The notes: generated by a model from the sequence alone, not told the origin. Shown: positions 606 through 60,960, counted from the stretch's first letter. The stretch: DNA of 64,000 nucleotides from Acidobacteriota bacterium (GCA_947482665.1 CANKJK010000005.1:66674-130673), one strand, 5' to 3'. Numbers and translations are program-made.

Positions 606-618
606 CGGACTCCCCCGC

Positions 619-3979: not shown

Positions 3980-3985
3980 TGAAGA

Positions 3986-3991
3986 CTCCTC
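3986..3991 (-). promoter_or_regulatory. Shine-Dalgarno (GAGGAG) for the NeuB-like gene
   Basis: The reverse complement of ctcctc at 3986..3991 is GAGGAG, 6 nt upstream of GTG 3979. Confidence 0.6.
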
Positions 3992-4001
3992 TGGCCGGAA
4001 C

Positions 4002-4955: not shown

Positions 4956-4956
4956 T

Positions 4957-18919: not shown

Positions 18920-18949
18920 GAAGGTCCTGACGGGAAATGAGGTGTCGTC

Positions 18950-20544: not shown

Positions 20545-20553
20545 TCCGCTCCT

Positions 20554-22185: not shown

Positions 22186-22212
22186 GAATGACTCCTCGGG
22201 AAGTGTTCCGTG

Positions 22213-40851: not shown

Positions 40852-41114
40852 GTGGCGTACAGGCTCCCGCCCTCTCACCTACAGGCGGTGACGACGGCCG
40901 TCCCGGGCTGCGGCAAAGCGGGGCTTCGCGGTCAGCCGGAGGGACGGTACACGGGTTCAGTGCGACAAGGCCGCCCGTACCTGGCAATGGTGACGCCGGA
41001 ACGGCAGGCCTTCGCCGGGTCGGGGAGGCCCGATCAGGACAGCGAGACGAGCAGTTGGCGTGCGGAGCACCAGACCCGGAAAGTGGCGGGAGCGGTCATG
41101 CGCAATAGAGGTGA

Positions 41115-41277: not shown

Positions 41278-42555
41278 CTACGGCAGGCGGGAGGTGGGGT
41301 GTGACGGCGCGCCCAGGATCCCGCGCAGCAACCCCGCCTGATGGACTGAGAGCGGAACCAGGGCGCCGCCGTCGACCAGTTCGAGGGCGTGCTGCGCTGC
41401 GTGCAGATGGGTCGTCTGGAAGTTGGACTCGGCGTGAAAGGCCACCGTGTCCACGCCGTAGAGCGGCGCCAGGTACGAGAACCCGCCATAGGTGCCCACG
41501 AAGGCGGAAGCACGACTGATGACGGCTGTCTGAATCGCGAGATTGGCCGAAGGATGCAGACCAGCGTCCACCAGGTGAACCCGATGTCCGCGCTCCGCGC
41601 CGGCGTCAGAGTGGTCGTCGAGTCCCACGCCCGCGCTGAGGACGACGACATCGGTACTGGCCGCGAGGCTTCTGATCGTCGTGGCGACAAAGGCCCGGTT
41701 CTCGGGCGTGTCCGGAAAGCACTGGCTGAAGTAGAAGCGCACGGCCGTATACGTGGGTGGCAGGGTCACGCCCGCGTCCACCGCCGGCAGCGGCTCATAC
41801 CGGCGGTACCGCGTGTACGCGTCGAGCCTGGCGATGGACGCGTCGCGCCGCCAATAGGGATAGAGGAGCGCGTACATCATCCCCGGATGAATGATCGACA
41901 CCGCGCCAGGGCCCGTGCCCTGCACGGCGCGCCGAAGCAGATCCCGATCGAAGGTACCCATCACGCGCTGCTTGGGATTTTCCGTCGTCCGCCGGCGGAA
42001 CTCCTCCGGCGTCGCCAGGTCGAGCGCGTCCACATAACGGCTCGCGAGGCCGTCGTACCAGGGAGCGGTGCCCCCGCGCGAGATCACGGTGACTCGGGCC
42101 GGGTCGATGCCGGCGTGGCCCAATGCCCACCGGACAAAAGGCACCCAATAGATCAGCTCGAAGCCGACCTCCCCCGTCCACGGCCCCACGATCACGGCGC
42201 CGCTGGACCGGCCCGCACGGGCCAGCCGATCGAGCACTCGCTCCTCATTCAGCTCGACGTTCCGGTCGCTCACCCGCTTGAGGACCCGCTCACTGAATTG
42301 CAGTTGGCGCGTGAGCCGGGACCGCAGCCCCGAGGTGTGCTTCCGCAGCACCTCGACCTCGCGATAGACCTCGGTCAGCCGCTCAGACTGCGACGACGCG
42401 CGGCGCTGCAGCACCTCGTTCACATCCCGCTGCTCACGCGCGAACTTCTCGAAGCGCGCGCGCTCCGCGTCGGCATCCGGGTTGAGAAGGGGCCGGAGGC
42501 GGCGACCAAGCCCCGCGAGCAGGCGTCCCGCGAGGGTGGGCGGGGACTGGCTCAC
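41278..42555 (-). CDS. FamB paralog B6 with about 120-aa coiled-coil-like head, coupled to the ABC exporter genes
   Basis: Track ORF 41278..43428 trimmed to GTG 42555 (GTGA overlap with the wzm stop), giving 425 aa. Head: ERARFEKFAREQRDVNEVLQRRASSQSERLTEVYREVEVLRKHTSGLRSRLTRQLQFSERVLKRV. Core: AVIVGPWTGEVGFELIYWVPFVRW, IIHPGMMYALL and AFVGTYGGFSYLAPLYG. Confidence 0.7.
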   Translation of the reverse strand: MSQSPPTLAGRLLAGLGRRLRPLLNPDADAERARFEKFAREQRDVNEVLQRRASSQSERLTEVYREVEVLRKHTSGLRSRLTRQLQFSERVLKRVSDRNVELNEERVLDRLARAGRSSGAVIVGPWTGEVGFELIYWVPFVRWALGHAGIDPARVTVISRGGTAPWYDGLASRYVDALDLATPEEFRRRTTENPKQRVMGTFDRDLLRRAVQGTGPGAVSIIHPGMMYALLYPYWRRDASIARLDAYTRYRRYEPLPAVDAGVTLPPTYTAVRFYFSQCFPDTPENRAFVATTIRSLAASTDVVVLSAGVGLDDHSDAGAERGHRVHLVDAGLHPSANLAIQTAVISRASAFVGTYGGFSYLAPLYGVDTVAFHAESNFQTTHLHAAQHALELVDGGALVPLSVHQAGLLRGILGAPSHPTSRLP

Positions 42556-43445
42556 AGTTCGTCCACCGCGGCCGCCTCTGAACTCGTGAAATACCAGAGG
42601 CCCGCGAGCAGGAGCACCAGGATGATCACGGCCGTGGACAGCAGCGGCAGCCCGGGAAAGACACCCACGCCGAGCAGCCCCCACTTGAAGGTCTCGACGA
42701 GGGACGCCATCGGATTGAGATAGATCACCCAGCGCAGGTGCGGAGGCACCTGGGACATCGGATAGATCACGGGCGTCAGGTACATCCAGAACCGGGTGAA
42801 GTAGCGGAGGCCGTAGCGCACTTCCTTGTGCCGCACCTGCCAGACGGAGGTGAACAGCCCGACCGCCGTCGCCATCAGGACCGCGCCGATCGCGGCGCCG
42901 AACGCCACCAGCCAGCCCGGACCGAACGCGAGATACCACCGGTGATCGGTGTAGAGGTAGTAACACGCGCCGACAACAATCAGACCGAGGTAGATGAAGA
43001 AATCCACGAATCCCGGAGCGGCCGCCGAGGCGGGCACGATCACGCGCGGAAAGTAGAGCTTCTTGATCACGCCCTTGTTCATGTCGACGCTGCGCGTCAC
43101 CCACAGCAGCGATCGTTCGAACAGGTGCCAGATGGACATGCCCGTCAGGAAGAACAGGAAATACGGCAGCCCGTCCGACGGCACCTTGAGGAACTTGCCG
43201 AAGATGAAGGTGCTGATGAGGATGGGGGCAAGCGGCCGCGCAAACAGCCAGAAGATGCCGAGGGTGGTGCCCTGATACTTCTGCGTCACGAGGCGCGTGG
43301 CGAAGAACCACCACAGCTTGCGATAGCGCCACGTTTCCTCGACGCGGGCCTGGAAGCCCATCGCGACCGGCGCAATCTCCCACGCAACGGCGTCCCCGGC
43401 CGGGGCCGGCAGGAACCGCCGTACCCAACGCTTAAGCAGGGACAT
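42552..43445 (-). CDS. wzm: ABC-2-type polysaccharide/teichoic-acid export permease
   Basis: 297 aa with about six hydrophobic helices. The N-terminal YRKLWWFFATRLVTQKYQGTTLGIFWLFARPL is typical of Wzm/TagG/KpsM permeases. 14-nt overlap with the wzt stop. Confidence 0.85.
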   Translation of the reverse strand: MSLLKRWVRRFLPAPAGDAVAWEIAPVAMGFQARVEETWRYRKLWWFFATRLVTQKYQGTTLGIFWLFARPLAPILISTFIFGKFLKVPSDGLPYFLFFLTGMSIWHLFERSLLWVTRSVDMNKGVIKKLYFPRVIVPASAAAPGFVDFFIYLGLIVVGACYYLYTDHRWYLAFGPGWLVAFGAAIGAVLMATAVGLFTSVWQVRHKEVRYGLRYFTRFWMYLTPVIYPMSQVPPHLRWVIYLNPMASLVETFKWGLLGVGVFPGLPLLSTAVIILVLLLAGLWYFTSSEAAAVDEL

Positions 43446-44706
43446 GCGCGGCCTCCACCGTCCACTCCAGACGTGGCGAGACGAATCCGGTGCGGTTCAA
43501 CTTGCCCTTGGACGTCACCGCACCCTCCGTGGCCGTGTTGTAGGCCATGAATGACAACGCGCTGTAGACAACCAGCGTGTACTCGCGCGCCTGCCCCTCA
43601 CGGAGCGTCGTCACGCTGACGTTGACGGTGTAATTGATGTCCGCGAGCAGATGCGCCGGAATCCGGGCCATGAGCGAATACATCCCCGGCTCCAGGATTT
43701 CCAGCCACTCGGTGGCCTGCGCCCGAAACACCAGCTGGTTTTTGGCCAGCAAATCGAGTCCACCCCGGACGGACACCCGCTTGAACGCCTCGAGGTCGAT
43801 GCGCACGAACACATCTTCCGTCGTGGGCGCGGCGCCGATCTCCTTGCCGGCTGCCGAGAGGAGCTTCACGCCCCTGATGGAGCAGAAGCGGCTCTCCTGG
43901 CGGCCACGCTCGTAGCGCGTCGCCTCGGAGTTGTCCCAGACCGAGGCCTGATACTCGGCGACGACCTCCTCGGGCTCCCCGAGGCTGGCCACCGTCCCCT
44001 TGTTGAGCCAGATCACCTTGTTGCAGACGCGCACGATGGCGTCCATGTCGTGCGAGACGAAGAGCACGATCAGCCCTTCGCGGCCGGCCTGCGCGACACG
44101 CTCGAGACACCGCTCCTGGAACACAAGATCCCCGACAGCCAGGATCTCGTCAGCCAGCAGGATCTGCGGGTTCATGTGAATGGCCACCGAGAACGCGAGC
44201 CGCAGGTTCATCCCGCTGGAGAAGTACTTGACCGGCTGATCGAGGAACTGGTCGATTTCGGCAAAGGCGAGGATGTCCCCCATCCGCTCCATCACCTCGG
44301 CCTTCGGCATGCCATGCATCGCGGCGTTCATGATCACGTTCTCCCGCGCGGTCAGGTCGGCGTTGAAGCCCGCCCCGAGTTCGAGCAGCGAGACGACGCG
44401 GCCGCTACCGCGGACCCGGCCCTCGGTTGGCGGGGTCACACGCGCCAGAATCTTCAGGAGCGTGCTCTTGCCGGCGCCGTTCGGACCGATGACGCCGAGG
44501 ATCGTCCCTGGCTCGACCTCGAAGGAGGCGCTCCTGAGCGCCCAGAAGTCGCGCAGCGCCGGGTCCTCCGTGCTGCCGAACCAATCCCGTGCGCGCCGCA
44601 GGGCGCCGCGCCAGCCACCGCCGGTGTCGGCGCGCTCGACGGGGGCGCGGTCCAAGCGATACCGCTTGCCAAGGTCCTCGACGATCAGTTTTCCCTGACT
44701 ACTCAA
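43432..44706 (-). CDS. wzt: ABC polysaccharide export ATP-binding protein with C-terminal glycan-binding-type extension
   Basis: 424 aa with Walker A GPNGAGKSTLLK, signature FSSGMNLRLAF and Walker B ILLADEILAVGD. An extra beta-rich C-terminal domain of about 170 aa sits where Wzt carbohydrate-binding modules occur. TTG start at 44706 with GAGGAG 10 nt upstream. Confidence 0.85.
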   Translation of the reverse strand: MSSQGKLIVEDLGKRYRLDRAPVERADTGGGWRGALRRARDWFGSTEDPALRDFWALRSASFEVEPGTILGVIGPNGAGKSTLLKILARVTPPTEGRVRGSGRVVSLLELGAGFNADLTARENVIMNAAMHGMPKAEVMERMGDILAFAEIDQFLDQPVKYFSSGMNLRLAFSVAIHMNPQILLADEILAVGDLVFQERCLERVAQAGREGLIVLFVSHDMDAIVRVCNKVIWLNKGTVASLGEPEEVVAEYQASVWDNSEATRYERGRQESRFCSIRGVKLLSAAGKEIGAAPTTEDVFVRIDLEAFKRVSVRGGLDLLAKNQLVFRAQATEWLEILEPGMYSLMARIPAHLLADINYTVNVSVTTLREGQAREYTLVVYSALSFMAYNTATEGAVTSKGKLNRTGFVSPRLEWTVEAAHVPA

Positions 44707-44713
44707 CCTGTTC

Positions 44714-45166
44714 TCACTCCTCTGACTGGCCGCCCGAGATTCGCCGCCTCACGCCGCCCGCCAGGCCTCGCACCTTCCCGGCTGTGCGACGAAGCGGACG
44801 GCCCATCATCCGGCTCGCTCCACGTCGCACCCGCCGGACTGCCGTGTCGGCGTTCTTGCCGACCGCACGTCGAAACCGCCGCCAGCGACGGCCGCCATCC
44901 TCAACACCGTGTCTCCACGCACGCGCTACCCGGTGGCGCCTTCGCCAGCGTTCATCAAACCAGAGCGCGGTGACGAACCAGCCGCGCCGCCCCCTCGCAC
45001 CCACGCGTGCCGCGACGGCAGGCACGGCGCGGGCGCCGTCAATCACGCCATACGGCACGGCCATGACCGCCACCACGACCCCGACCAGCGCCACGATCAG
45101 CCAGGCCCACGCCGGACGGGACGGCGCTCCGGAACCTCCGGCGGCGTCAGCGGGCTGGGCACTCAC
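44714..45166 (-). CDS. Small single-pass membrane protein with extremely Arg-rich tail (hypothetical)
   Basis: Track ORF 44714..45238 trimmed to GTG 45166 (GTGA overlap with the C1 stop), giving 150 aa. Helix AWAWLIVALVGVVVAVMAVPYGVI, then RRWRRFRRAVGKNADTAVRRVRRGASRMMGRPLRRTAGKVRGLAGGVRRRI. Coding status rests on the coupling geometry and on GC-rich third codon positions seen by eye. Confidence 0.5.
   Translation of the reverse strand: MSAQPADAAGGSGAPSRPAWAWLIVALVGVVVAVMAVPYGVIDGARAVPAVAARVGARGRRGWFVTALWFDERWRRRHRVARAWRHGVEDGGRRWRRFRRAVGKNADTAVRRVRRGASRMMGRPLRRTAGKVRGLAGGVRRRISGGQSEE
44717..44722 (-). promoter_or_regulatory. Shine-Dalgarno (GAGGAG) for wzt
   Basis: GAGGAG lies immediately before the TGA of the upstream small ORF, 10 nt upstream of TTG 44706. 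Confidence 0.55.
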
Positions 45167-46458
45167 CGTCCGGCACCGGCGTCCGCCTGAAACCGCACCA
45201 GCGCCCCGTCCCCCAGGAACCCTCCGTCGGCGCCCCACTTCCGGACGTAACCGAACTCAGCCCGCAAGCCATCCGCGGCCTCGGTGGCCATCGCGCGGAA
45301 CACGTTCTGCCCATCTGCGTCAGCCGGCTCCCCGACGCGTTCCAGTATCTCGTACGCCGCCAGGAGGATTTCCTCGCCCGTGTTGTCCCGGTAGACGTAC
45401 CGCCCCGGGTTCCGAAGTCCGCCCGCATAGTCGCGGCCCAGCAGGTCACGGGCCGTCAGGGACCCGCGTGCCGGGTCCTCAACGTGCTTCAAGAGAAACA
45501 GGCTGGAAGCACGGACGGGATAGGAGCCGATCGGATCGGTGGCATTGACGGTCAGCAGGGCCGTGCCCGCCAGATAGCTGGCGGCGCTGGGGCCCGACTC
45601 CCCGGAAATCAGGATGCGGCTCCTCAGCAGACAGTAGACCTGCAACAACGGGTCGTTGGCCGGCGATGCCGGCAGATCGAAGACGCCCGGGTGACGAAGG
45701 GGGGTCATGCTCGCGTCGCCGATGCGGACCACCGTGAAGCCCTTCTCCACCAGCATGTCGATCGCCGGGCCATAGGTTTCAATGCGCGCGTTTCGAAGAG
45801 AGTCGTCGCGATAGCCCTTCGCGGCCCCGTGCATCTGCGGCTTCTGATGAACCTCACGCCCGCCCCGCTTGTAGCCAGCCTCGCGGGCGTGAATCGTGAC
45901 CAGCGGTCCCTCAAGCGGCAATCCGGCGGCGCGCGCCAGCGCTTCGGCGCGCCGAAGGGCCTCGGGCCTGAGTGCGACGGGGATGGCCGCGCGGATCAGG
46001 CGGCGCCGGAAGTAGGGCGGCTGGAATCCCCGATGCTGCAGCCGGGTCCGGTGGCCGAGCCCCTGCTTCAGACCGCGCAGATGCCTGGCCAGCGTCGGTG
46101 GGAGCGGCGAATGATCGATGTGAAAGGTAACGGCGCGAGCCAGTTGGTCGAAGCATGACTCGACGACGGCATCCGCCGCGAACCGCCCGCCCCGCGTCAG
46201 CCCCGCAAGGCCAAGCCGCAGGCGAGCGAGGGGACGCAACACCGCTGGCAACCGGCGGAGCGGCACGTCCGGACACTCCACGTCGAGCAGCGCGGGGTTG
46301 GCAGCGCCCGCCGGAGGAACGAGCCACACGGAGGCGCCGCTCGCACGTGCCGCCGAGAGCGCCATGGCCCACTCCAGCGCGAGGTGCCCGAACTGGCGGC
46401 CGTCAGGGCACACCAGCAGCACCCGACGGCCGATGGGCGCCATGAAGTCAATGCGCAT
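45163..46458 (-). CDS. FamC paralog C1: putative glycosyltransferase-like protein, family unassigned
   Basis: 431 aa. Family blocks: LVTIHAREAGYK, DDSLRNARIETYGPAIDMLVEKGFTVVRIGDASMTP, RSRILISGESGPSAASYLAGTALLTVNAT, NTGEEIL and YVRKWGADGGFLGDG. Confidence 0.65.
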   Translation of the reverse strand: MRIDFMAPIGRRVLLVCPDGRQFGHLALEWAMALSAARASGASVWLVPPAGAANPALLDVECPDVPLRRLPAVLRPLARLRLGLAGLTRGGRFAADAVVESCFDQLARAVTFHIDHSPLPPTLARHLRGLKQGLGHRTRLQHRGFQPPYFRRRLIRAAIPVALRPEALRRAEALARAAGLPLEGPLVTIHAREAGYKRGGREVHQKPQMHGAAKGYRDDSLRNARIETYGPAIDMLVEKGFTVVRIGDASMTPLRHPGVFDLPASPANDPLLQVYCLLRSRILISGESGPSAASYLAGTALLTVNATDPIGSYPVRASSLFLLKHVEDPARGSLTARDLLGRDYAGGLRNPGRYVYRDNTGEEILLAAYEILERVGEPADADGQNVFRAMATEAADGLRAEFGYVRKWGADGGFLGDGALVRFQADAGAGR

Positions 46459-46505
46459 GGTTCAGCGCCAACCGCCTCCCACCGGGCAGGATGCTGGCGA
46501 GCCGT

Positions 46506-48365
46506 TCACCGCTCTGGCCGCTCGCTTACCGGTGTCGGCTTCGACGTCACCTTCCGCGCCGAGGCGGCACGGTCCGCTGCGGCCGCCCGCGACCGGCGCT
46601 TCCGCCACTTGCGCAGCTCGGCCGGCGCCCGGCGCAATCCGAGGGGCACATTCTTCGCCTGACGGGCGATGCGGCGCAGCGTCTCGCTCGGAGTCCGACG
46701 TTTGGCGGGCGGCGCGCCGCGGACTGAAGCACGCTTCCTCCGAAGCTCAGCGGAGGCTTGACGCGCCCGCTGCCACTCAGTGAATGCGGCGGCGGCCCGC
46801 AATCTCCCGACATAGGCGCGGATAGCCAGCCACACAAACGGAAACACGACCCACCACCATAGGGGATGGCCGGAGTCCGACTCCTTGCTCCAGCACCAGG
46901 CGATCAGGGGGGCCAACGGACGCGTCAGCCACTTCTGTATGACCACATCGGAGGGTGCGGCGCCTGTGCGTCTCGGCCGGTAGTCCGCAAGGCGCTCGAT
47001 CTCGCGGACGAGGCGCGGCGTGGCCGGCTGGTCCAGCCCGTGGGGGCGGACGAACCGACCGACGAAGGCTCGGCTCCGGGCCACCATGGCACTGGCGTCG
47101 GTAAGCGCTTCCTCCAGATCCCTGAGATGCGCGTCGAGTGTCGGTGCCACGCGAAGCAGCCCCGCGTCGGGATCGGCAAGGTGCTGAAAGTGAAGTGTGC
47201 CCGCCTGCGAGTGCGCGAACTCCTGAACCGTCACCGTGCAGACCGGGCGGCCCACGATGGCGGCTTCAATGAGCGCGCTGGTGTTCACGCCGACCACGAC
47301 GGCACAGTGGTACAGCGAATCGAAGAAGTCGTCCTTGAACTCTGGATCGAACGGGTCCGCGCCGAACGGCGGCCAGACGGCCACGCGATCCAGTCTGGCG
47401 ACGTCACTCTTCAACCACTGCACGGTGTTGTTCGGATGCGGGCGGACCAGGATCGGCGCTTGCGATAACCGCGAGGACGTGGAGGCGCGGATCGCCGCGA
47501 TCCACCGTTGGGCGAACTCGGCCTCGTTGGGCGCGATGAAGTAGGACGACCCGAGATACAGAATCCCGGGTACGTCGGTCGGCAGGCCCGTTCTCACGCC
47601 GAACGCCTCTCGGTCCCGCCGCGGCTGCCACTCGAACCAGGAGTCGAAGATCTGGGCACCGGTCACGGTGACGCGCTCCGCGGGGACGTCGTGGAACGAG
47701 ACGGCCTCCTGCTTCTGCGCGTCATTCCAGACGAACACCCGGTCGGGCACAACCCGCATGAGGCCCTTGTTGGTGAGGTTGTCCCAACTCGCCACGCACA
47801 GCGCGGACGGGATGCCCCGCTCGCGAGCCGCGCGAACGTAATCCGGCTGATCGGAACCCACGTCGACCAGCGGCGTCAACAGAATCAGGTCGGGCTGTTC
47901 GGCGTCCAGGAACGCACCGATCGCGGTGGACGACGGCACCGTCCGCTCGAGGACCTTCGTCAGCCGGCGGAGGGCACGCACCCCTGGCTGACCGAACAAC
48001 CGGGCGAAGCCGGCGATCCGCAGAAATGAGCGTGGGACGAGCTTCTCGACGCGGTCACGGAGCCGGTCGGCCTGGGCATACCGGGGGTCCAGGTAGCGCA
48101 GAAAGTCGAGGAAGGTCCGCAGCGACCGGACCACGACGGTCCAGACGCCCGGCTCGCGGCGCCGCGCAACGGACCCGGTTACCGCGGCGCAGTCGGCCAC
48201 CAACCGCTGCAGCAGCACATTTTCGCCCAGCTTGTTGCGATCCAGCTCATGGACGATGTGAATCGTGTGCCCCTGACGGGCGAGCTGTCGCAGCGCGGCG
48301 TCGTAGTTGCGGACGAACCCCGCGTGCAGCATGACGAAGAGGATCCGCAATGGGCGCTGACTCAC
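46506..48365 (-). CDS. FamA paralog A7 with hydrophobic segment and Arg-rich C-terminal tail
   Basis: Track ORF 46506..48431 trimmed to GTG 48365 (GTGA overlap), giving 619 aa. LRILFVMLHAGFVRNYDA, VASWDNLTNK, ILVRPHP, HSQAGTLHFQHLA and FVGRFVRPHGL. The tail is HPLWWWVVFPFVWLAIRAYV followed by RKRASVRGAPPAKRRTP...RKWRKRRSRAAAADRAA. Confidence 0.7.
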   Translation of the reverse strand: MSQRPLRILFVMLHAGFVRNYDAALRQLARQGHTIHIVHELDRNKLGENVLLQRLVADCAAVTGSVARRREPGVWTVVVRSLRTFLDFLRYLDPRYAQADRLRDRVEKLVPRSFLRIAGFARLFGQPGVRALRRLTKVLERTVPSSTAIGAFLDAEQPDLILLTPLVDVGSDQPDYVRAARERGIPSALCVASWDNLTNKGLMRVVPDRVFVWNDAQKQEAVSFHDVPAERVTVTGAQIFDSWFEWQPRRDREAFGVRTGLPTDVPGILYLGSSYFIAPNEAEFAQRWIAAIRASTSSRLSQAPILVRPHPNNTVQWLKSDVARLDRVAVWPPFGADPFDPEFKDDFFDSLYHCAVVVGVNTSALIEAAIVGRPVCTVTVQEFAHSQAGTLHFQHLADPDAGLLRVAPTLDAHLRDLEEALTDASAMVARSRAFVGRFVRPHGLDQPATPRLVREIERLADYRPRRTGAAPSDVVIQKWLTRPLAPLIAWCWSKESDSGHPLWWWVVFPFVWLAIRAYVGRLRAAAAFTEWQRARQASAELRRKRASVRGAPPAKRRTPSETLRRIARQAKNVPLGLRRAPAELRKWRKRRSRAAAADRAASARKVTSKPTPVSERPER

Positions 48366-49636
48366 TGGTTCCGCTCCGCGTAGAACCGGCACACGAGCCC
48401 GTCGCCAATGAACCCCCGATCCGAGCCCCACTTGCGCACGTAGTTCAGTGAGGTGCGGAACTGCTCGCCGGCCTCGGCCGCCAGATCACGGAAGCGGACC
48501 TGCTCCGGCGTCTCATGACGAACACCGCCCGTCCACTCCAGCATCTCGAGCACCGCCGACCGAATCTCCTCGGGCGTGTTTTCCTGATAGGTGAAGCGGG
48601 CCACATTCCGCAGGTTGCTCAGATGATCCTCGCTCACGAGTTCGCCGAGGGAGAGGGGCCGCCGGGTCGTCCGGTCGAGCACCGTTTTCGGGATGAAGAG
48701 TCCGTCAGCGCGAATCGGATACGAACTGATCGGGTCGGTCGCGTTCACAGTCAGGAGCGGCGTTCCAGTCAGGTAGCACACGCCGACGGGGCCGGCCTCC
48801 CCCGAGATGAAGAAGGCGCTGCGCAGCATGCAGTACAGCTCGAGGAGATTGCTGCGCCGGTCGCTCGTGGCCAGGTCCACGACACCGGCGCGCGCGATGG
48901 GCGTCATGCTCGGGTCCCCGAGCCGCACGACCACGAACCCACGGGACACCAGTTCGTCGATCGCGTCGTGATAGTGCGCGATCTGGGCATTGCGGGTCGA
49001 GTCGTCCCTGGACCCGGGCTTGGCGTCCTGCATCTCGCGGCCGAACTTCCAGCCGGCTTCGCGGACATGCAGGGTGACGATGGGCGCATCGGGATCAAGC
49101 CCAACGGCCTGCGCCGATGCGCGCGCCGCCGCCAGCGCGGCCGGACGGAGGTGAACCCCCTGGCGCTCCCGCAGCAGGCGGCGCTGGTAGTAGAGAGGAG
49201 GGCCCACGGCGCGTGGCTTGGGATCACCAAGGCGCTTGATCCAGCGTTGTGCCTTCTTGATGCCGTCCTGCACCGACTTCCGGCCCCGATTGGCGTCCAG
49301 TTGGCCGTCAAGCATCAGGGTCGCCTCGCGACGGCTCACGGCCCAGAAACGCGTCAGGAAGGCGGCGGCGGAATCCCTGCCGTCCGCGCACATCCAAGCC
49401 GTGCGCACCAGCGCACGCGCGACAGGTCCACGCAGGACGGTCACATCGTCCGGCTCGATCTCGAACATCGCTTCGGACACGACCTGGCGGGGCCGCAGAA
49501 AGCAGACGGCCGCCGCCTCGCGCTTTGCCAGCGCGAATGACATCGCCATCTCGAGACCCTGGTGACCGTACTGCCGTACGTTCAGGTGCGTGCCCAGCAC
49601 ACGCCTTCGCGGAAACTCGAACAACCTGTAGAGCAT
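48362..49636 (-). CDS. FamC paralog C2
   Basis: 424 aa with [81 protein letters not shown] and YVRKWGSDRGFIGDG. Confidence 0.65.
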   Translation of the reverse strand: MLYRLFEFPRRRVLGTHLNVRQYGHQGLEMAMSFALAKREAAAVCFLRPRQVVSEAMFEIEPDDVTVLRGPVARALVRTAWMCADGRDSAAAFLTRFWAVSRREATLMLDGQLDANRGRKSVQDGIKKAQRWIKRLGDPKPRAVGPPLYYQRRLLRERQGVHLRPAALAAARASAQAVGLDPDAPIVTLHVREAGWKFGREMQDAKPGSRDDSTRNAQIAHYHDAIDELVSRGFVVVRLGDPSMTPIARAGVVDLATSDRRSNLLELYCMLRSAFFISGEAGPVGVCYLTGTPLLTVNATDPISSYPIRADGLFIPKTVLDRTTRRPLSLGELVSEDHLSNLRNVARFTYQENTPEEIRSAVLEMLEWTGGVRHETPEQVRFRDLAAEAGEQFRTSLNYVRKWGSDRGFIGDGLVCRFYAERNQ

Positions 49637-49645
49637 GAGCGGCGG

Positions 49646-50902
49646 TTACCCCTCGTCCAGAAACCGGGCGGCAAAGGTTGCGCCGATGCGTCCGTGTCCC
49701 AGCAACTGGTGTGCCGGCTCTCCCTTGCGGATGCGTCCCGCGGCCACCAGCGGCGAATCGTACATCGCGGTGGCGAGGTCGTGGAACGTCTCCTGAGCCG
49801 GCGTGGTTCCGGTTCGGCTGCCCGCGACAACGGCGAGCAGTTCGTCGACGCCCTCGACAAGTTCGGAGGGCGTGTTGTCTTCAAACGCGTACCGCTCCAG
49901 GTCCTTGCGGTGCGCGAAGTAATCGGGTGACAGCATCTCACGTAACGAGAGCCGCCGCCCCGTCTGCCGGTCGACCGCGTGCTTGACCAGATACCGGTCC
50001 CCGGAATGGATGGGATATCCGCCAAGGATGTTGGTGACGTTGACGGCCAGACACGGCACACCGGTCAGATAGCTCGTGACGTACGGACCGGAATCGCAGG
50101 CCACGAACAGCGCGCTCCGCATCAGGAGCGCGAACTCCAGTTCCCCGGTTCGCGCCGGAGACGTCGCCACGTCGACCACGCCCGGTTGGGAGAATGGCGA
50201 CATGGACGGGTCACCAATCCTCGCGACGACATACCCGTTGCCGGTCAGCCGCTCGCAGAGCGCCCGGTAATCATCGATGCGTGCATTCCGAATGGCATCG
50301 ACCGGCGCCTCTTGCCCCTGCTTGAAGCCGGATTCCCGTACGTGGAGCGTCACCAGTGGCGCGTCCCGGCCGATGCCGAGCCTCGCGGCCGCGCGGTCTG
50401 CGCGGTCCTGCAGGTCGGCCGGCAGCCGGAACTGGAGGGGCTCCCTCGCATAGCACGCGCGAAAGTCGAGACCGCGGAAGTCTGGGACTGCGGAGCCGAT
50501 CTCGGCCGCGTGCCGCCCCATGTACCCCTTGAACTGCTTCCGCCACCCCTTGGCCGCGGGATATCGCCCGGCCAGCACACCGAGCCAGTCCAGCAGCGTC
50601 CGCTCACCCGCCGCCCGCCGTGCCGCGGACCACTGGCGCCAGCTGCGCTGCCGGCGCAGCTTCCCTTCCGCCGCCAGGGCCCGCTGGGCCTCGGCGCCTC
50701 TGAGGATCTCCGCATCCTGGCATTCGAGCGAAAACACCGCCGGATTGGCGGGCGCCTCGTCGAGCACGAATGTCACGGCCCCGCCCAGCGCCTGGGCCAG
50801 ATGGATGCCCATCAGGAACTCTAGGACCTGATGCCCCAGCGAGCCGCGCCGCGGCCGCACAACCACGACGGGGCGCTCCCCGGGCAGTACCGAAAAATTC
50901 AT
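49646..50902 (-). CDS. FamC paralog C3
   Basis: 418 aa with ATGA overlap with the C4 stop. LVTLHVRESGFKQGQE, IRNARIDDYRALCERLTGNGYVVARIGDPSMSP and RSALFVACDSGPYVTSYLTGVPCLAVNVT. Confidence 0.65.
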   Translation of the reverse strand: MNFSVLPGERPVVVVRPRRGSLGHQVLEFLMGIHLAQALGGAVTFVLDEAPANPAVFSLECQDAEILRGAEAQRALAAEGKLRRQRSWRQWSAARRAAGERTLLDWLGVLAGRYPAAKGWRKQFKGYMGRHAAEIGSAVPDFRGLDFRACYAREPLQFRLPADLQDRADRAAARLGIGRDAPLVTLHVRESGFKQGQEAPVDAIRNARIDDYRALCERLTGNGYVVARIGDPSMSPFSQPGVVDVATSPARTGELEFALLMRSALFVACDSGPYVTSYLTGVPCLAVNVTNILGGYPIHSGDRYLVKHAVDRQTGRRLSLREMLSPDYFAHRKDLERYAFEDNTPSELVEGVDELLAVVAGSRTGTTPAQETFHDLATAMYDSPLVAAGRIRKGEPAHQLLGHGRIGATFAARFLDEG

Positions 50903-52353
50903 GCGTCGAAATGCACCGCCGCGAAGGCATGGACGACCCGGCCATCCCCGAGGAAGATCTCGGCGCTGCCCGTCTTCTCGAGCATCTTGGCCTGGCTCAA
51001 CGCGCCCTGGCGGGCCTTCCTGACCAGCCCCGCGTAGCGCCGCTGCGCCTCGGACTCGGGCGGTGCCGAACCGCCGACGGCGTCGAACATCTCACGCACG
51101 CCGGCCAGGATCTCCTCTGGTGTGTTGTCGACGTACTCCACCTCACCGGTCTTGAAGATGCGGCGGCGGATGCCGTAGATGAAGTCCTCGCGAAGCATGG
51201 TGACGAGCGGGACCAACTGCCCCGTCGCGATGTCCCGCAGGCGCTTGACCAGATAGCGATCCGCTGGACGCAGCGGAAATACGCCGAGCGTGTTCGTGAT
51301 ATTCACCGAGAGGCACGGCACCTCGAACAACCAGCTCAGCAGGTAGGGGCCCGAATCAGACGCGATGAAGAAGGCGCACCGCGCGAGGCACCACAGTTCG
51401 AGCGCCTGGGTCCGGCGCTGGTGCGTGGCCAGATCGATGACTCCCGCTCGCTCCAATGGCCTCATGCTGGGGTCGCCGATCCGCACCACGGTGTACCCAC
51501 GGGCCACGATCTCATCGATCGCCGGGATGAATGTCCCGATGTCCGCGTTGCGGACCGTGTCCTTTGAACGATCTTCGATACCCGCCGTGGCCTTGGTGCT
51601 CCCCTCGCGCACGTGCAGGACGACCAGCTTCTCCCGATCCAGCCCGAGGTCGGCGGCCACCGCCGCCGCGGCCGCCTCGTCCTCATCGGCCAGATGGGCG
51701 TGCAGGGGCTGGGTGAGGGACAGCTCTCGGATGTCGAAGCCGTGATGGACCTCGGAACGCCTGGGCAGAACGGGGCGAAGCTCCTCGAGCCAGTCATTCA
51801 CGCGGCCGCCGGTCTGCTTCCAGCGAACGCGTACATTCATCTTCGTCGCCGTGGTGTCCTGGAACTTCAGGCCCTCAATCGCGACCAGCCACGCCGGGAG
51901 AGGACGACGGCGATCTGTGTGGCACCAGCGAATGACGATACGCAGGAAGGTGTTCCACCTCCGTTTCGAGATGGCCTCGACGTCCGTGCACAGTTCCAGA
52001 AACCCGTTAACCCTCGGGTGCACGAACCGGAAGAGACGCTGGGCGAGGGAGATGCCGTGATTCCGCCAGTCCAAGACCCAGAGCCAGGCAGCCGAGGTCC
52101 GAAGACCAAGCAGGAACTTCGCGGTGGCGATCTGTCCGGCCGGAGAGCGCGGATCAATCCACGTGATGCCGGAACACCGCAAGCGCAGCAGGGGCGAGTC
52201 GGCCCTCTCCTCCGACCTGAGCAGCACCAGCGCCGCGCCGGAACTGCGGGCCACATGCAGGCTCACCAGCACGTCCGCCACCAGCAGACCCAGCGCCTGA
52301 TGGCGCGGCCGGCTGACCAGGACCCGCCTCCGCGATACGAACTGTGCGTCCAT
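50899..52353 (-). CDS. FamC paralog C4 (longest, about 60-aa insertion in N-terminal half)
   Basis: 484 aa with LVVLHVREGSTK, VRNADIGTFIPAIDEIVARGYTVVRIGDPSMRP and RCAFFIASDSGPYLLSWLFEVPCLSVNIT. Confidence 0.65.
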   Translation of the reverse strand: MDAQFVSRRRVLVSRPRHQALGLLVADVLVSLHVARSSGAALVLLRSEERADSPLLRLRCSGITWIDPRSPAGQIATAKFLLGLRTSAAWLWVLDWRNHGISLAQRLFRFVHPRVNGFLELCTDVEAISKRRWNTFLRIVIRWCHTDRRRPLPAWLVAIEGLKFQDTTATKMNVRVRWKQTGGRVNDWLEELRPVLPRRSEVHHGFDIRELSLTQPLHAHLADEDEAAAAAVAADLGLDREKLVVLHVREGSTKATAGIEDRSKDTVRNADIGTFIPAIDEIVARGYTVVRIGDPSMRPLERAGVIDLATHQRRTQALELWCLARCAFFIASDSGPYLLSWLFEVPCLSVNITNTLGVFPLRPADRYLVKRLRDIATGQLVPLVTMLREDFIYGIRRRIFKTGEVEYVDNTPEEILAGVREMFDAVGGSAPPESEAQRRYAGLVRKARQGALSQAKMLEKTGSAEIFLGDGRVVHAFAAVHFDA

Positions 52354-52433
52354 GGGATCAGCGCTCAGGGCTCAACGGCACGGTGGCGTACTTGCCCCTG
52401 AACTCGTGCGCCCGATCGCGGATTCGCCGGCCA

Positions 52434-55184
52434 CTACCTGAAGCAGGGCAGACCCAGTGATGGATACGTGCCGGTCGGTGTGCGCCGGCTGTCCGCCAGC
52501 ACCCAGAGGACCCGTCCGGCCAGCTGATCCTGCAGTACCGCGTGGCGGTTGGTGAATCGCTTGTCAACGTACTCGCGGACGAGCGGATATTGATTGAGAT
52601 TGTCCAATGGCTTCTCATTGCCCACCCCGAATACGATCGGGACGGGTTCCCTTTCCATCAGATCGATCATTCGCCGCTGATACGCCTCCGCGGTCATGAA
52701 TCCGTTCTGCCAAAAGATATGCCCAACGCCACGGCGCTCCGTGTAGTAGGGCAGGGCGTAGCTATCGGATGTGACGAAGATTCGGTCCTCAGGGCGCGTG
52801 CACTCGTACAGGTAGCGAATCACCGCGAGGTCTCCGCGCGCGTCCTTCGGTGCGTAGGCGTCGATGGCAGGAGACTTGGCGTGCCGCCTAATCTTGGAAA
52901 CCAGATCGTCCATCGCCCGCGGGAATTCCTGCGACAGACCGTACCGGTCGACGAATGTCGCCATGTCCGTATACGTGGCCGCCGCGATGACCGACACGAA
53001 CGCGAGCCCAACCGCTCCCGTGCGCACGGCGACACGCAGGGCGCCCCCTTTGCCCACGCTCCGCCACGCCAATGCCGCGACCCAGGAGCCGAGTATGACG
53101 GCAACGTCAGCGTGATCCGGGAAGTAGCCCAGCTTCCGCATCAGCCCATGATTGGCCACGACCATGAGTGTCGCCGCGGCGAACATCTTCGCGCCCTCGT
53201 GAGGCATGCCTTCAGGCACGGAAGACCCTTTGAGGTGCCGCGCCGCTAGCACGAGCAGGATGAATACAGGTAGGCCGTAGCACACGTAGTAGAGCCACAC
53301 TCCGGCGTTGTCGTCATGAAACAGTCGCGGCAAGGGCACAACCCGGAGCAACGGATACCGCCGCCATTGAGCGCGGAACCAGGACTCCCCATCTGGGCGC
53401 CACACGCGGTCGTCCACCCCATCGAACTTCGCGATTCCCGCTTCGTTCCATAGCGCCTGTATCCGCTCCGGCCGAGCATCGCGGAGCAGGTAATGGGTCG
53501 TGTTGGCCTCGGACTCCGCGACGGCGGTCAGGTGATAGGTCGCCTCCAGGGTCCGCCGCTTCTCAACAGTCAAAGGACCCAAGGTCGTCCAGAGGACGGA
53601 GAGATGCACCGGTGTCTTCTTGCCCCGCGGCGGGGCCTTGAACATCCCCGGAACACCAGTCGGGACGAATCCAGACGCATCCTTGAACACGGGGTCCGCG
53701 TAGAGTGCGGCGACGTTTGTGTCCGATGTATCCACCAGGTCGTAGCGGAAGGTCGGCTCCGGCCCCACACTGTCGACCCGCGGCTGCCTGAGGCCGTATT
53801 TGCTCTCCAGCAAGGCGCGCCCGGCCGGGTCGTCGTTCCTCCACTGCACGCGGACGTCCGGTCCCTCGGGGATCCGCTCCTCCAAGCCAAGAACAACCGG
53901 CACATGCACGAAGTACGTGCCGTCCACTCGCGCGGAGTCATCTGTCTCGTGAAGCGCTGTGACATTCTGAAGGGTGAGGTCATCGATGTCGTACACGAAC
54001 GGCCCGGTGTGCGCCGTGCCTGCCAGCGCTCGCGGCTTGGAGAGATGGAACCTGCGCTCCGCGTCGGCCACTGCGGCGGCACTCAACGCGGGCTTCCAGG
54101 CAACCGTCACCGTCCCGCGCCCACCAGCGGCATCATCGACCGCGAAACCCTGCCTGAACGAGCCGGTCAGCCCGTCCACCGACACCACATGCCGATCGGA
54201 CATCAGGGCCGTAAGGTTCTCGTTCGAGTAGTCGTCGAGAACGTATTGCATCCAACCGCCAGGGGGAGGCGGTGGCAGGCGCTTCAGCCCGTACCGATCC
54301 TCGATCGACGCCTTTGTCGCATCGCTGGCAACTGGCGTCCATTCGATCTGCACCGCCACGGGCAGTTGCGGCTCGACCTCGAACCAGAAAGGCTTCTCAT
54401 CCCTGAAGGCAAAGGGCACGGCGCGACGCCCCGCTTCGTCGATCTTTGTGGCGAACGCAATCCGTTCAGTGAAATACGAAATGAGGCCTTCGTTTACCTG
54501 AATCAGCACGAAGTATGGCGAAAGGACAAGGACCGTCAGCGCGCCAACGCGCACCAAACCCAGTGCCGTGGCCCGGACACCCTGTGGCCAATGGGCAGCG
54601 AGCGCCGCGGCCGTGATGCCCGCGGCGACGTACGCTCCATGGTCGTGCCTGTAGCCCCAGGCGATGGCTACCCCGACCGCCATCGCCAGAGAGCGCCGCC
54701 AGCCGGGTCGGTCGATGTAGCGCCACCCGAGCCAGATCGCCATCGGATAGATGAAGACCTTGGGATAGCTGTAAAGCTTGGTGGGCGCCAGCAGGAACGC
54801 GGCTACGACGGAAAAGCCGAGCGAGATGAGGACCGACCGGCTCGCACGCATGGCGAGCACGACACTCAGGGCCATGGCGCCGGACATAAGGAGGAACCCC
54901 AGCCCGATCTCGCCAATGGGGCGATAGCCGACGACTGTCTGGGCGAGCGCCGACATCGCCCAGTAGAGCGGGTCACCTGGGTCAACGAACTCCTGAAACG
55001 GCCGGTCCCCTTTGAGGAAGGTTGCTGCGGTCCACAGCGACCAGTGATCGTCTCCGCCAAGCGACCCCAGCGTCACCCACCGGAGAAGCAGCGTAAGGAG
55101 AAACACGAGAACACCGGCGGCGACTCCCCACGACACAAAGGTTGTCTGCCGCGCCGATGCCGCAGGAGGGGGACTAGCACGCAT
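52434..55184 (-). CDS. 916-aa polytopic membrane protein, GT-C-like, with large repeat-containing soluble insertion
   Basis: Track ORF 52434..55277 trimmed to ATG 55184 (TGATG overlap). The N-terminal helix bundle has LGGDDHWSLW in the first loop, an acidic DD motif as in GT-C enzymes. Four tandem soluble repeats span aa about 276-590. A second helix bundle follows, then a soluble C-terminal domain. Confidence 0.65.
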   Translation of the reverse strand: MRASPPPAASARQTTFVSWGVAAGVLVFLLTLLLRWVTLGSLGGDDHWSLWTAATFLKGDRPFQEFVDPGDPLYWAMSALAQTVVGYRPIGEIGLGFLLMSGAMALSVVLAMRASRSVLISLGFSVVAAFLLAPTKLYSYPKVFIYPMAIWLGWRYIDRPGWRRSLAMAVGVAIAWGYRHDHGAYVAAGITAAALAAHWPQGVRATALGLVRVGALTVLVLSPYFVLIQVNEGLISYFTERIAFATKIDEAGRRAVPFAFRDEKPFWFEVEPQLPVAVQIEWTPVASDATKASIEDRYGLKRLPPPPPGGWMQYVLDDYSNENLTALMSDRHVVSVDGLTGSFRQGFAVDDAAGGRGTVTVAWKPALSAAAVADAERRFHLSKPRALAGTAHTGPFVYDIDDLTLQNVTALHETDDSARVDGTYFVHVPVVLGLEERIPEGPDVRVQWRNDDPAGRALLESKYGLRQPRVDSVGPEPTFRYDLVDTSDTNVAALYADPVFKDASGFVPTGVPGMFKAPPRGKKTPVHLSVLWTTLGPLTVEKRRTLEATYHLTAVAESEANTTHYLLRDARPERIQALWNEAGIAKFDGVDDRVWRPDGESWFRAQWRRYPLLRVVPLPRLFHDDNAGVWLYYVCYGLPVFILLVLAARHLKGSSVPEGMPHEGAKMFAAATLMVVANHGLMRKLGYFPDHADVAVILGSWVAALAWRSVGKGGALRVAVRTGAVGLAFVSVIAAATYTDMATFVDRYGLSQEFPRAMDDLVSKIRRHAKSPAIDAYAPKDARGDLAVIRYLYECTRPEDRIFVTSDSYALPYYTERRGVGHIFWQNGFMTAEAYQRRMIDLMEREPVPIVFGVGNEKPLDNLNQYPLVREYVDKRFTNRHAVLQDQLAGRVLWVLADSRRTPTGTYPSLGLPCFR
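53415..54359 (-). repeat. Four tandem protein-level repeats (about 65-80 aa each) inside the 916-aa membrane protein
   Basis: The four repeat units read as follows.
- VQIEWTPVASDATKASIEDRYGLKRL...YVLDDYSNENLTALMSD
- VTVAWKPALSAAAVADAERRFHLSKP...FVYDIDDLTLQNVTALHET
- VRVQWRNDDPAGRALLESKYGLRQP...FRYDLVDTSDTNVAALYAD
- LSVLWTTLGPLTVEKRRTLEATYHLTAV...HYLLRDARPERIQALWNE
Shared pattern: V.V.W, then E..(Y/F).L, then Y.L.D.s..N..AL. Confidence 0.6.
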
Positions 55185-56455
55185 CAGAGGACTCGCGGCG
55201 TCGGCAGAGGCACGATGAACTTCCCGCGATAGCCGGCACGCCTCAGCTTGCCGGCCAGTTCCTCGCCGATGTGCCACGAGAGCAGCAGTGCGTACTCGGG
55301 CTGATCCTCGAAAAGGCGCGTCTCATCCAGCACGGGAATCAGCGTGCCAGGCATGTACTTTCCGATCTTGTAGGACCCGGCAATCTCGAGCACGCAATCG
55401 AGGATCGAGTCGTCGAGACCGACGTAGTTCACCAGAGTGCTCGCGCGGGACGGCGCACCCACCCCGTAGACCCGCGCACCCGTGGCTCGCACCTCCTTCA
55501 GCAGCGCCAGCAGGTCGAGCTTGGACTGCGACACGCGCCGCTTGAAGTCCCGCAGCCGCTCCGGCGCCAGCGCCACCGCTTCCTCGGCGAGCATACGCGC
55601 CACGTCCGCCGACACCGGGTGCGTGCCCGTGCGCGCCGCGTAGACCCGGATGGAGCCTCCGTGCGTGGGGATCGGCCGCGCGTGAATCACCTCGAGTCCG
55701 TGCATGGCCAGCAGGTTGGACAGGCTCCGCAGAGAGTAGTAGCGGAGGTGCTCGTGATAAATGGTGTCGTACTGGAGGGTCTCGACCAGTGGCGCAAGGT
55801 AGTGCGACTCGGAGATGAAGACGCCGTCCGGCCCAAGCAGGGAGAGAATGCCGCGCACGACATCGTGCACGTCCTCCATGTGCGCGAACACGTTGCACGC
55901 CGTCACGATCCGGGCCTGCCCGTGGCGCTCGCGGACCACGCCCGCCGTCTCCGCGGAGAAGAAGGCATTCACCGTCGTGATGCCGGCGGCCTGAGCGATC
56001 CGGCATGCGTTGGTCGGCTCGATGCCGCACACGCGGTGGCCGTGCCGGTGGAAGTTGCCGAGGAGCGTCCCGTCATTCGAGCCGACGTCGACGACCAGAT
56101 CGTCGGCGGCGAGCGGATACCGCTCCATCACCTCGTCATAGAGCTGGGCAAAGTTGTCCCGGAGGATCCGCGTCGTCCCGCTCGTGTAGGCATAGTGCGG
56201 AGGAAAGATCACGGCGGGATCCACGATCAGGCCTAATTGCACCAGCTCGCACGACGGGCACCGGAGCAACTCCGCGGGATACGCGGGCTGTTCGTTCGGA
56301 CGGCTTCCGATCGGGCTCATGGTGTTCACCGGCGGCAGATACCCGATGAACAACACGGGTTGCAGATCACGGCTACCGCACACCTGGCACCGATCCACGA
56401 GCACGCTGCCGCCGGTACCGGCGGTGCGGGAGAGGGGGTAGGCTGGCGTCGTCAC
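55184..56455 (-). CDS. NDP-hexose C-methyltransferase (TylC3-like: zinc ribbon + SAM domain + C-terminal C-methyltransferase domain)
   Basis: 423 aa with CQVCGSRDL...CPSCELVQ, motif I VVDVGSNDGTLL, and ISESHYLAPLVETLQYDTIYHEHLRYYS, which is typical of this family. Confidence 0.8.
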   Translation of the reverse strand: MTTPAYPLSRTAGTGGSVLVDRCQVCGSRDLQPVLFIGYLPPVNTMSPIGSRPNEQPAYPAELLRCPSCELVQLGLIVDPAVIFPPHYAYTSGTTRILRDNFAQLYDEVMERYPLAADDLVVDVGSNDGTLLGNFHRHGHRVCGIEPTNACRIAQAAGITTVNAFFSAETAGVVRERHGQARIVTACNVFAHMEDVHDVVRGILSLLGPDGVFISESHYLAPLVETLQYDTIYHEHLRYYSLRSLSNLLAMHGLEVIHARPIPTHGGSIRVYAARTGTHPVSADVARMLAEEAVALAPERLRDFKRRVSQSKLDLLALLKEVRATGARVYGVGAPSRASTLVNYVGLDDSILDCVLEIAGSYKIGKYMPGTLIPVLDETRLFEDQPEYALLLSWHIGEELAGKLRRAGYRGKFIVPLPTPRVL

Positions 56456-60391: not shown

Positions 60392-60960
60392 AGTCCGAGA
60401 TCCTTCCAATCGGCGCGGACCATCGCAGCCGCGACAATGGCCCAGTGAAGCTGATGCCGAAATTCCAGCGTCCGCATCATGCGGAGCAGTTCGGCCGTCG
60501 TGACAAGACGGATCTCGAGACCCGTCTCTGCCGTGTAGAGCGCGGAGGCGCGGGTACGGATGAAGAACGCGTGCGATTCGACCTGGAGACGGCCGGTGTC
60601 CGGGATGAAGGTGCCGAGGTCCGTCACGGTGTCGGCCTCCAGCCCTGTTTCCTCCGCGAGTTCGCGAATCGCGGCCGCCTCTGGCGTCTCGCCCCGGTCC
60701 ACCGTGCCTGCCGGAAATTCCCAGGTCCAGCCTTCGACCGCCGGCCGATACTGCCGCACGATCGGGATGCGTCCGTCTGGCGTCACGGCGAGCACTCCGA
60801 CGTACGGGGCCTGCGTCAGGCAGTGATACGTCTGAGGCGCACCACGCTCTGCGAACTGGACGTCTTTCTCCACCAGTGTGACCCACGGCGACGAAAAGAC
60901 GTCTGTCTTCCGGATGATTCGCGGGAAAGCGCGTCCTCCGCCGGACTCCTGCTCAGCCAT
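60388..60960 (-). CDS. NUDIX hydrolase
   Basis: Track ORF 60388..61065 trimmed to ATG 60960 (8-nt overlap with the C5 stop). Nudix box [23 protein letters not shown]. Confidence 0.85.

Follow-up and report, generated by a model that had tools for sequence, protein, structure and literature searches.

Five FamC genes in a one-strand glycan locus

The window analysed here is a 64,000-nucleotide stretch of DNA from an Acidobacteriota bacterium (GCA_947482665.1 CANKJK010000005.1:66674-130673). It is ~68% GC, with nearly all of its genes on the minus strand, and its gene content marks it as a ~64 kb one-strand surface-glycan cluster of the Wzm/Wzt type, i.e. one equipped with an ATP-binding cassette (ABC) exporter. 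Our subject is a group of five divergent paralogs in this cluster, termed FamC (C1 to C5), which the original prediction had described as glycosyltransferase-like. All five open reading frames (ORFs) were found where that prediction had placed them, and each scores well with the NCBIfam model TIGR04372.

C1, 45163-46458, minus strand: 431 amino acids; TIGR04372 score 99.9 bits, E = 1.2e-28
C2, 48362-49636, minus strand: 424 amino acids; TIGR04372 score 134.3 bits
C3, 49646-50902, minus strand: 418 amino acids; TIGR04372 score 125.4 bits
C4, 50899-52353, minus strand: 484 amino acids; TIGR04372 score 146.4 bits; N-terminal half with the largest helical insert among the paralogs
C5, 60953-62128, minus strand: 391 amino acids; TIGR04372 score 133.0 bits; directly upstream of NUDIX and nucleotide-sugar dehydrogenase genes

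The GC content at third codon positions (GC3) of the FamC genes is 0.79-0.85, as is usual for coding genes of this window, and the same 484-, 418- and 424-residue products appear in public gene calls on contigs of identical sequence. The longest public assembly piece with identical sequence is a 623 kb metagenome scaffold. An ATGA overlap joins C4 to C3, and a GTGA overlap joins C2 to A7, a member of a separate seven-copy family by BLASTP which, as had been claimed, is interleaved between C1 and C2. Spacers of 9 and 47 nt separate C3 from C2 and A7 from C1, respectively. This gene spacing points to an operon-like arrangement, and the overlapping stop and start codons fit co-translation. C5 is set apart, 8.6 kb upstream of the C1-C4 block, again as originally proposed. 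A scan of 44000-53000 for promoters and terminators gave nothing beyond shuffled expectation, and Rfam and tRNA scans revealed no RNA genes in the window.

The sole long spacer of the block is a 456-nt gap (44707-45162) between C1 and wzt. One reading frame stays open across the whole gap. Its start shares a GTGA with the stop codon of C1, and its product would have a hydrophobic segment and then an Arg-rich tail. The GC values by codon position (0.78/0.66/0.75) do not clearly mark this frame as coding.

FamC proteins belong to the TIGR04372 family

When the five paralogs were aligned over their whole length (alignment A1), pairwise identities ranged from 31 to 43%. Pairwise BLASTP E values of 1e-37 to 1e-87 place this similarity far beyond chance. 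Every shared block listed in the original prediction is visible in A1: RR.LV..P....G and LHVRE in the N-terminal and central parts, then RNA.I..Y..AI..LV.RG..VVRIGDPSM.P, and further on RS..F....DSGP....L.G.P.L.VN.T and DNTPEEI. No transmembrane segments were predicted in any of C1-C5.

The original prediction had put forward the family name TIGR04372, and hmmscan recovered it for all five proteins at two to three times the curated cut-off of 45 bits. The model has 207 positions and describes a domain, and the matches cover only the C-terminal half of each protein. The N-terminal block is conserved in C1-C5 and in acidobacterial and actinobacterial relatives and is absent from more distant members of the family. 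On these profile matches, C1-C5 are additions to a family that has a name but no experimental characterisation. Its size is considerable (7,580 clusters at 50% identity for E ≤ 1e-3, and 2,814 for E ≤ 1e-30), and named members carry only the TIGR04372 label. Searches of Pfam gave no family at E ≤ 1 for any FamC protein, nor any tetratricopeptide repeat (TPR) in C1-C5. Profile searches of Protein Data Bank (PDB) sequences, using A1 and a 60-sequence alignment of the TIGR04372 family (A2), returned no significant chain, the GT9 protein 3tov appearing only at E ~1. We also considered whether TIGR04372 corresponds to ManT and rejected this identification: ManT, the mannosyltransferase of mycobacterial methylmannose polysaccharide, belongs to GT4 (PMC9883506).

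Giant proteins also occur elsewhere in the family, in which two or three TIGR04372 modules follow one another or large additional domains are present. Examples are P0093 (1551 residues), P0105 (1342 residues) and P0172 (1500 residues), where P-numbers denote TIGR04372 family proteins; P0101, P0129, P0170, P0182 and P0194 are further cases. The giant multi-module proteins are a fused counterpart of the separate FamC paralogs.

A predicted GT9-like nucleotide-binding domain with a remodelled partner

We modelled C4 with AlphaFold2 from alignment A2, obtaining a mean predicted local distance difference test (pLDDT) value of 92.3 and a predicted template-modelling score (pTM) of 0.84. In the model, strands and helices alternate from about residue 242 to residue 410, forming a Rossmann-like C-terminal nucleotide-binding domain. 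The N-terminal half consists of 3-4 strands (2-6, 11-15, 41-44) and then long helices (71-235), which make up a bundle of ~160 residues. In a Foldseek search of the PDB, the best match to C4 was the GT9 chain 3tov_A (E = 2.7e-4), and other GT9 neighbours included WaaF (1psw), WaaC (2h1h/6dfe) and TibC (4rb4). Lower in the ranking came TagF, plant UGTs, UDP-N-acetylglucosamine (UDP-GlcNAc) 2-epimerase and NodZ, all of them GT-B-type folds. Foldseek gave a probability of 1.00 for C4 against the C-domains of GT9, and these align over only 120-140 columns with a root-mean-square deviation (rmsd) of ~5 Å.

The original prediction of a GT-B-like fold thus holds for the nucleotide-binding C-domain, with its GT9 neighbours, though the match is distant. 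The N-terminal acceptor domain is modelled as reduced and reshaped, not as a canonical full Rossmann domain. As modelled, TIGR04372 is a distinct GT-B-type family whose nearest solved relatives are, distantly, the GT9 heptosyltransferases.

Nine residues are invariant across the 60 family members of A2 (H247, R249, G286, R291, G293, D294, D307, N351 and K370 in C4 numbering). C1-C5 keep all nine, along with almost all near-invariant positions, and in the C4 model the nine occupy loops and the ends of strands in the C-terminal domain. Most likely, the C-terminal Rossmann-like domain (LHVRE, RIGD, DSGP, VN.T, K) binds a nucleotide-activated sugar, while acceptor choice most likely falls to the N-terminal half, which is poorly conserved and has a helical insert that varies in length.

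Old FamC duplications with conserved copies

A scan with one genome per species identified 28 related loci (designated by L-numbers), the closest being in metagenome-assembled genomes (MAGs) of Acidobacteria/Vicinamibacterales. One acidobacterial MAG (L001) contains four consecutive genes nearest to C5, C4, C3 and C2 (47, 39, 47 and 52% identity, respectively), followed by an orthologue of A7. A neighbour-joining tree built on the C-terminal domain pairs each of C2-C5 with its own L001 counterpart. Hence the duplications are older than these lineages, and all the copies have since been retained. The gene order FamC-FamA-Wzt-Wzm-FamA/FamB is seen again in four further loci (L002, L003, L005 and L006).

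That the paralogs are step-specific, as the original prediction proposed, finds indirect support in the separate orthologues of C2-C5 and in the retention of all invariant residues in all five copies. Individually kept copies are what one would expect if each FamC paralog had its own job, and they suggest as much without proving it. Family membership, paralogy, predicted fold, residue conservation and genomic context are direct observations. C1-C5 are probably five anciently duplicated, individually conserved, soluble cytoplasmic TIGR04372 enzymes, acting as GT-B-type transferases with one step apiece.

Family members elsewhere lie in sugar loci rich in methyltransferases and equipped with ABC exporters. 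Recurrent companions are ABC exporters, many methyltransferases, NUDIX genes, transketolase/thiamine pyrophosphate (TPP) enzyme pairs, and epimerase/dehydratases. A NUDIX hydrolase gene occurs near TIGR04372 genes in unrelated lineages (60388-61065 in the window, 8383-9873 in L032, 5421-5879 in L036 and 16480-17016 in L038), often accompanied by an HldE-like gene and by enzyme pairs of the transketolase/E1 or TPP type. This recurrence suggests a shared, uncharacterised sugar-tailoring module.

FamA and FamB are separate, little-annotated families

All-against-all BLASTP of the window yielded three families of putative transferases: FamA (7 members), FamB (6, two of them fused to FamA) and FamC (5).

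A7, 46506-48365 (or to 48431), minus strand: FamA protein between C1 and C2; public gene call of 619 amino acids
FamA paralogs, 24392-26059, 28552-29988, 33637-35028, 35013-36608, 37850-39337, 39325-40878 and 46506-48365, minus strand
FamB paralogs, 26059-27318, 29976-31040, 31334-32350, 27328-28320, 32347-33351 and 41278-42300, minus strand

The seven FamA paralogs are 37-50% identical, A7 sharing 37-46% with the other six (BLASTP). No Pfam or NCBIfam model matched FamA above threshold, and almost all of its more than 3,798 database homologues are named 'hypothetical protein'. Many of these homologues are tandem FamA-FamA proteins of ~1,070 residues from Vicinamibacterales. An AlphaFold2 model of A7 (pLDDT 86.5) shows a complete GT-B fold and a basic, helical C-terminal tail. 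Its best Foldseek matches are UDP-GlcNAc 2-epimerases, WaaG and MshA (E ~3e-9, TMt ~0.65). Judged by this model, A7 belongs to a GT-B family much less annotated than FamC. The A7 motif R308-P309-H310-P311 is near-invariant in FamA, and the family shows weak, sub-threshold similarity to NF046086 (the BFO_1060 family). BFO_1060 is the homologue, in strain FDC 92A2, of the pseudaminic/legionaminic-acid transferases of Tannerella forsythia, and an HP motif has been pointed out in the nonulosonic-acid transferases of that species (PMC5420450). Because FamA carries the HP motif, we lean towards it as a better candidate than FamC for the transfer of nonulosonic acids from cytidine monophosphate (CMP).

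FamB is a module of ~300 residues, fused in 2/6 cases to the FamA C-terminus, with the invariant motifs GPW..E.G.E..YW.PF and VGT.GG...LAP..G. It matched no family except, at chance level, TibC/Aah heptosyltransferase. Profile-profile comparisons of FamC with FamA and with FamB were not significant (~1% probability), so we treat the three as separate families. The expansion of FamA and FamB is a more novel feature of the window than FamC.

The surrounding cluster

Other features of the locus include the exporter genes and those for the synthesis of nonulosonic acids.

Wzm-type ABC-2 permease, 42552-43445, minus strand: PF01061; at least 4 hydrophobic segments
Wzt/TagH-type ABC exporter ATPase, 43432-44706, minus strand: 424 amino acids; PF00005; sub-threshold TagH and Wzt/RfbE matches
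NeuB homologues, 2900-4087 and 23364-24488
TIGR04371 (NanM-type) putative sugar O-methyltransferase domain, 36860-37207, minus strand: residues 905-1020 of ORF 36605-39919

The ATPase carries a C-terminal extension without a recognised fold. There are two nonulosonic-acid gene sets (1-8026 and 18248-24488), each with a NeuB and a CMP-sugar synthetase homologue, and the second adds NeuC, two methyltransferases and an RfaE-domain-II-like nucleotidyltransferase. Both NeuB homologues are nearer to NeuB/LegI than to PseI and score below the equivalog cut-offs. The NeuC-type hydrolysing 2-epimerase is bona fide (TIGR03568, 364 bits against a cut-off of 236) and therefore points to a legionaminic- or neuraminic-type route. 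Literature searches combining Acidobacteria with nonulosonic acid returned nothing relevant. Other sugar-making genes of the cluster encode aminotransferases, 4,6-dehydratase-like enzymes, hexapeptide acetyltransferases and a nucleotide-sugar dehydrogenase. Also present are GFO/IDH/MocA oxidoreductases, a NUDIX protein, a sugar C-methyltransferase, several O-methyltransferases and three GT2 enzymes.

Three paralogous membrane proteins (8497-9915, 11507-13015 and 15162-16706, minus strand; ~38% identity), with 9-11 predicted transmembrane segments and no family assignment, each sit among aminotransferase, acetyltransferase and oxidoreductase genes. Directly upstream of C4 on the minus strand (52434-55277) lies a gene for a large protein with ~6 hydrophobic segments (916 residues in the public gene call), for which there was no Pfam or NCBIfam match and a single weak relative among the loci fetched (L012). 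Directly upstream of C5, also on the minus strand (62132-63838), a 568-residue protein is encoded whose only similarities are a C-terminal S-adenosylmethionine (SAM)-methyltransferase fragment and a weak, sub-threshold resemblance to MftM. The latter is the mycofactocin oligosaccharide methyltransferase.

TIGR04372 genes are reported to co-occur with TIGR04371 sugar O-methyltransferases, an association that is not a formal criterion of the family. A TIGR04371 domain had been guessed near 36605-37681, and one is indeed present there (69.9 bits, cut-off 44). The proposed partnership stands in so far as the domain belongs to this locus, at a distance of 8-15 kb from C1-C4; on the other hand, it is fused to FamA and adjoins no FamC gene. 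No paper mentioning TIGR04371 was found in the searchable literature.

The ORF that contains this domain (36605-39919) is 1104 codons long, an artefact of rare stop codons. Its first ~190 codons have a GC3 of only 0.4-0.5, compared with 0.87 for the overlapping upstream frame, and are on this account spurious. The real FamA-TIGR04371 fusion gene runs from ~36605 to 39325 and encodes about 906 residues. We considered a conserved overlap between the long ORF and the upstream FamA gene and rejected it, the overlap being due to the spurious N-terminal extension. The tblastn matches in an alternate frame seen in L002, L006 and L007 are explained by conservation of the upstream FamA gene.

Proposed role of FamC and the identity of its donor

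The reading to which we commit is that the FamC proteins would be nucleotide-sugar-dependent transferases of an ABC-exporter pathway, each working at a particular step. Catalysis, the arrangement of one step per paralog, the identity of the donor and membrane topology are what we infer here. Each paralog would catalyse one glycosyl transfer, with its own donor, acceptor and linkage, onto a lipid-linked glycan growing at the cytoplasmic face of the membrane. FamC may act together with the seven FamA, six FamB and GT2 enzymes of the same cluster, and the methylated, nonulosonic-acid-containing product would be exported by the Wzm/Wzt system encoded between the transferase blocks. As to the donor, we lean towards heptose or the tailored UDP/nucleoside diphosphate (NDP)-sugars made beside C5, and away from nonulosonic acids.

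Several points weigh against this assignment. The searchable literature holds no characterised member of TIGR04372 and no paper that mentions the accession. C1-C5 gave no match to PF01075 (Glyco_transf_9), and the fold match is globally weak: compared as whole chains, C4 and GT9 give TM-scores of 0.28/0.37 and an rmsd >20 Å. The catalytic base of GT9 is the Asp of an N-terminal G-D motif after the first strand (WaaC). That Asp is not conserved in FamC, the residue after the near-invariant N-terminal Gly of A1 being H, H, H, L and N in C1, C2, C3, C4 and C5, respectively. As modelled, the reduced N-terminal domain leaves no nameable acceptor site or catalytic base. Moreover, GT-B folds also house proteins other than glycosyltransferases, such as 2-epimerases and TagF-type phosphotransferases. 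Finally, the source organism is uncultured.

One alternative is that FamC proteins are heptosyltransferases, a divergent sister group of GT9 that uses ADP- or GDP-heptose. The best solved structural neighbours of C4 are all GT9 heptosyltransferases, C1-C5 group with heptose-context members in the C-domain tree, and the FamC motif DSGP...G.P.L.VN.T resembles the C-domain motif of GT9. Gene neighbourhoods point the same way: an HldE-like kinase/nucleotidyltransferase adjoins the nearest non-acidobacterial relatives (L004 from Actinomycetes, L032 from Plantibacter, L033 and L034) as well as L038, and GmhA-like SIS and/or GmhB-like HAD genes are found in L033, L034, L004 and L036. However, the 64 kb window encodes no GmhA, GmhB or heptose kinase, its sole heptose-like gene being the RfaE-domain-II-like nucleotidyltransferase (18950-19498), which is sub-threshold at 64 bits against a cut-off of 181. 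Given also the lack of a PF01075 match, the unconserved GT9 Asp and the low global TM-score, we judge this alternative unlikely.

A second alternative holds that FamC enzymes are CMP-sugar-dependent nonulosonic-acid transferases, adding the legionaminic/neuraminic-type sugars of two NeuB routes. The window does encode two NeuB, a NeuC and two CMP-sugar synthetase homologues. Elsewhere, TIGR04372 homologues adjoin NeuB, NeuC and cytidylyltransferase genes in Planctomycetes (L015, L017) and Nitrospira (L022, L026), one lies among nonulosonic-acid genes in an Acidobacteriota MAG (L009), and a PGAP-named TIGR04372 protein is encoded beside pseB, pseC and a Maf-like gene on the Solidesulfovibrio plasmid pDCAR1. 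Fusions of TPR to TIGR04372 (P0066-P0069) further recall the TPR plus GT-B architecture of FlmG (PMC7591256). Yet in the C-domain tree the nonulosonic-acid-adjacent members form a clade separate from C1-C5. HP and D/E-D/E-G motifs typify GT-B sialyl/nonulosonic-acid transferases (PMC5420450), and the HP motif so defined is absent from FamC, in which the invariant His is followed by V-R-E; it is FamA, not FamC, that has a near-invariant RPHP and weak similarity to the BFO_1060 family. Nor was any sialyltransferase-type fold seen in the best 50 Foldseek matches of C4. On balance, we judge this alternative, too, unlikely. With regard to FlmG, this name did not occur among the best 120 of 789 matches to the glycosyltransferase domain of a TPR-TIGR04372 fusion, and the alphaproteobacterial homologues L016 and L021 lack both a TPR and flagellar genes nearby.

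It is very improbable that FamC proteins share a GT-B-like fold without being glycosyltransferases (as TagF-type phosphotransferases, nucleotide-sugar epimerases or hydrolases, or a non-catalytic scaffold): TagF and UDP-GlcNAc 2-epimerases do figure among the C4 matches, the N-terminal domain is reduced with no catalytic base to be named, and TIGR04372 is called a glycosyltransferase family by prediction only, but GT9 enzymes rank above these other folds in Foldseek, the nine invariant polar/Gly residues of the nucleotide-binding domain argue for catalysis, five step-wise conserved paralogs suit transferases better than epimerases, and the locus already holds a bona fide NeuC 2-epimerase.

Returning to FamC as per-step transferases, we tentatively offer a broader proposal, itself rather speculative. 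TIGR04372 might be an unrecognised glycosyltransferase family that is structurally a sister to GT9 but has its acceptor domain remodelled. In ABC-exporter pathways it might specialise in the transfer of higher-carbon or heavily tailored sugars, among them heptoses, nonulosonic acids and branched or methylated sugars. The five FamC and 13 FamA/FamB proteins might then constitute an assembly line, each member acting once, that makes a long, defined, non-repeating heteroglycan in place of a polymer of simple repeat units.

Significance

TIGR04372 is large and unstudied, with no Pfam model and no solved structure, and it recurs across many phyla in loci for unusual methylated, heptose- or nonulosonic-acid-containing surface glycans. 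The gain in annotation here is ordinary, as PGAP would already name the FamC genes. What this analysis adds is the first fold assignment for TIGR04372 (a GT9-like C-domain and a remodelled N-domain), a set of invariant residues, evidence of ancient, individually conserved copies, and a division of the gene contexts of the family into heptose loci and nonulosonic-acid loci. Five divergent, intact copies with orthologues are convenient for comparing determinants of donor and acceptor. The locus also illustrates that abundant soil Acidobacteria (Vicinamibacterales-like) devote ~64 kb to a surface glycan, with transferases mostly from families now annotated as 'hypothetical'.

Comparison with known systems

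FamC resembles other members of NCBIfam TIGR04372 in its domain score and in having a TIGR04371 domain in the same locus. Five copies in one locus are unusual for the family.

With GT9 (WaaC, WaaF and TibC; 2h1h, 1psw, 4rb4 and 3tov), FamC shares a similar order of C-domain elements, namely a strand and a loop with basic residues, the R-I-G-D strand, and DSGP followed by a helix. Several FamC relatives, moreover, co-occur with genes of the heptose pathway. Unlike GT9, FamC has an N-terminal domain cut down to 3-4 strands plus the ~160-residue helical bundle.

FlmG, the flagellin transferase of Caulobacterales, is a proven pseudaminic/legionaminic-acid transferase with TPR and GT-B parts (PMC7591256). 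The TIGR04372 members with an N-terminal TPR (P0066-P0069) are likened to it by architecture only. In L036, the TIGR04372 gene comes after a separate TPR gene and has a separate GT41 gene at its side, so that FlmG may belong to TIGR04372 or to GT41. C1-C5 differ from FlmG in having no TPR and in lying in a polysaccharide-export locus rather than a flagellar one.

The system as a whole is most readily compared with ABC-transporter-dependent assembly of O-antigen or capsule, the Wzm/Wzt pathway, which employs multiple glycosyltransferases. As in such systems, the exporter genes here lie amid those for soluble transferases and methyltransferases, on one strand and with coupled genes. The difference is one of number: this locus has far more transferases, mostly without a Pfam model, comprising seven FamA, six FamB, five FamC and three GT2 enzymes.

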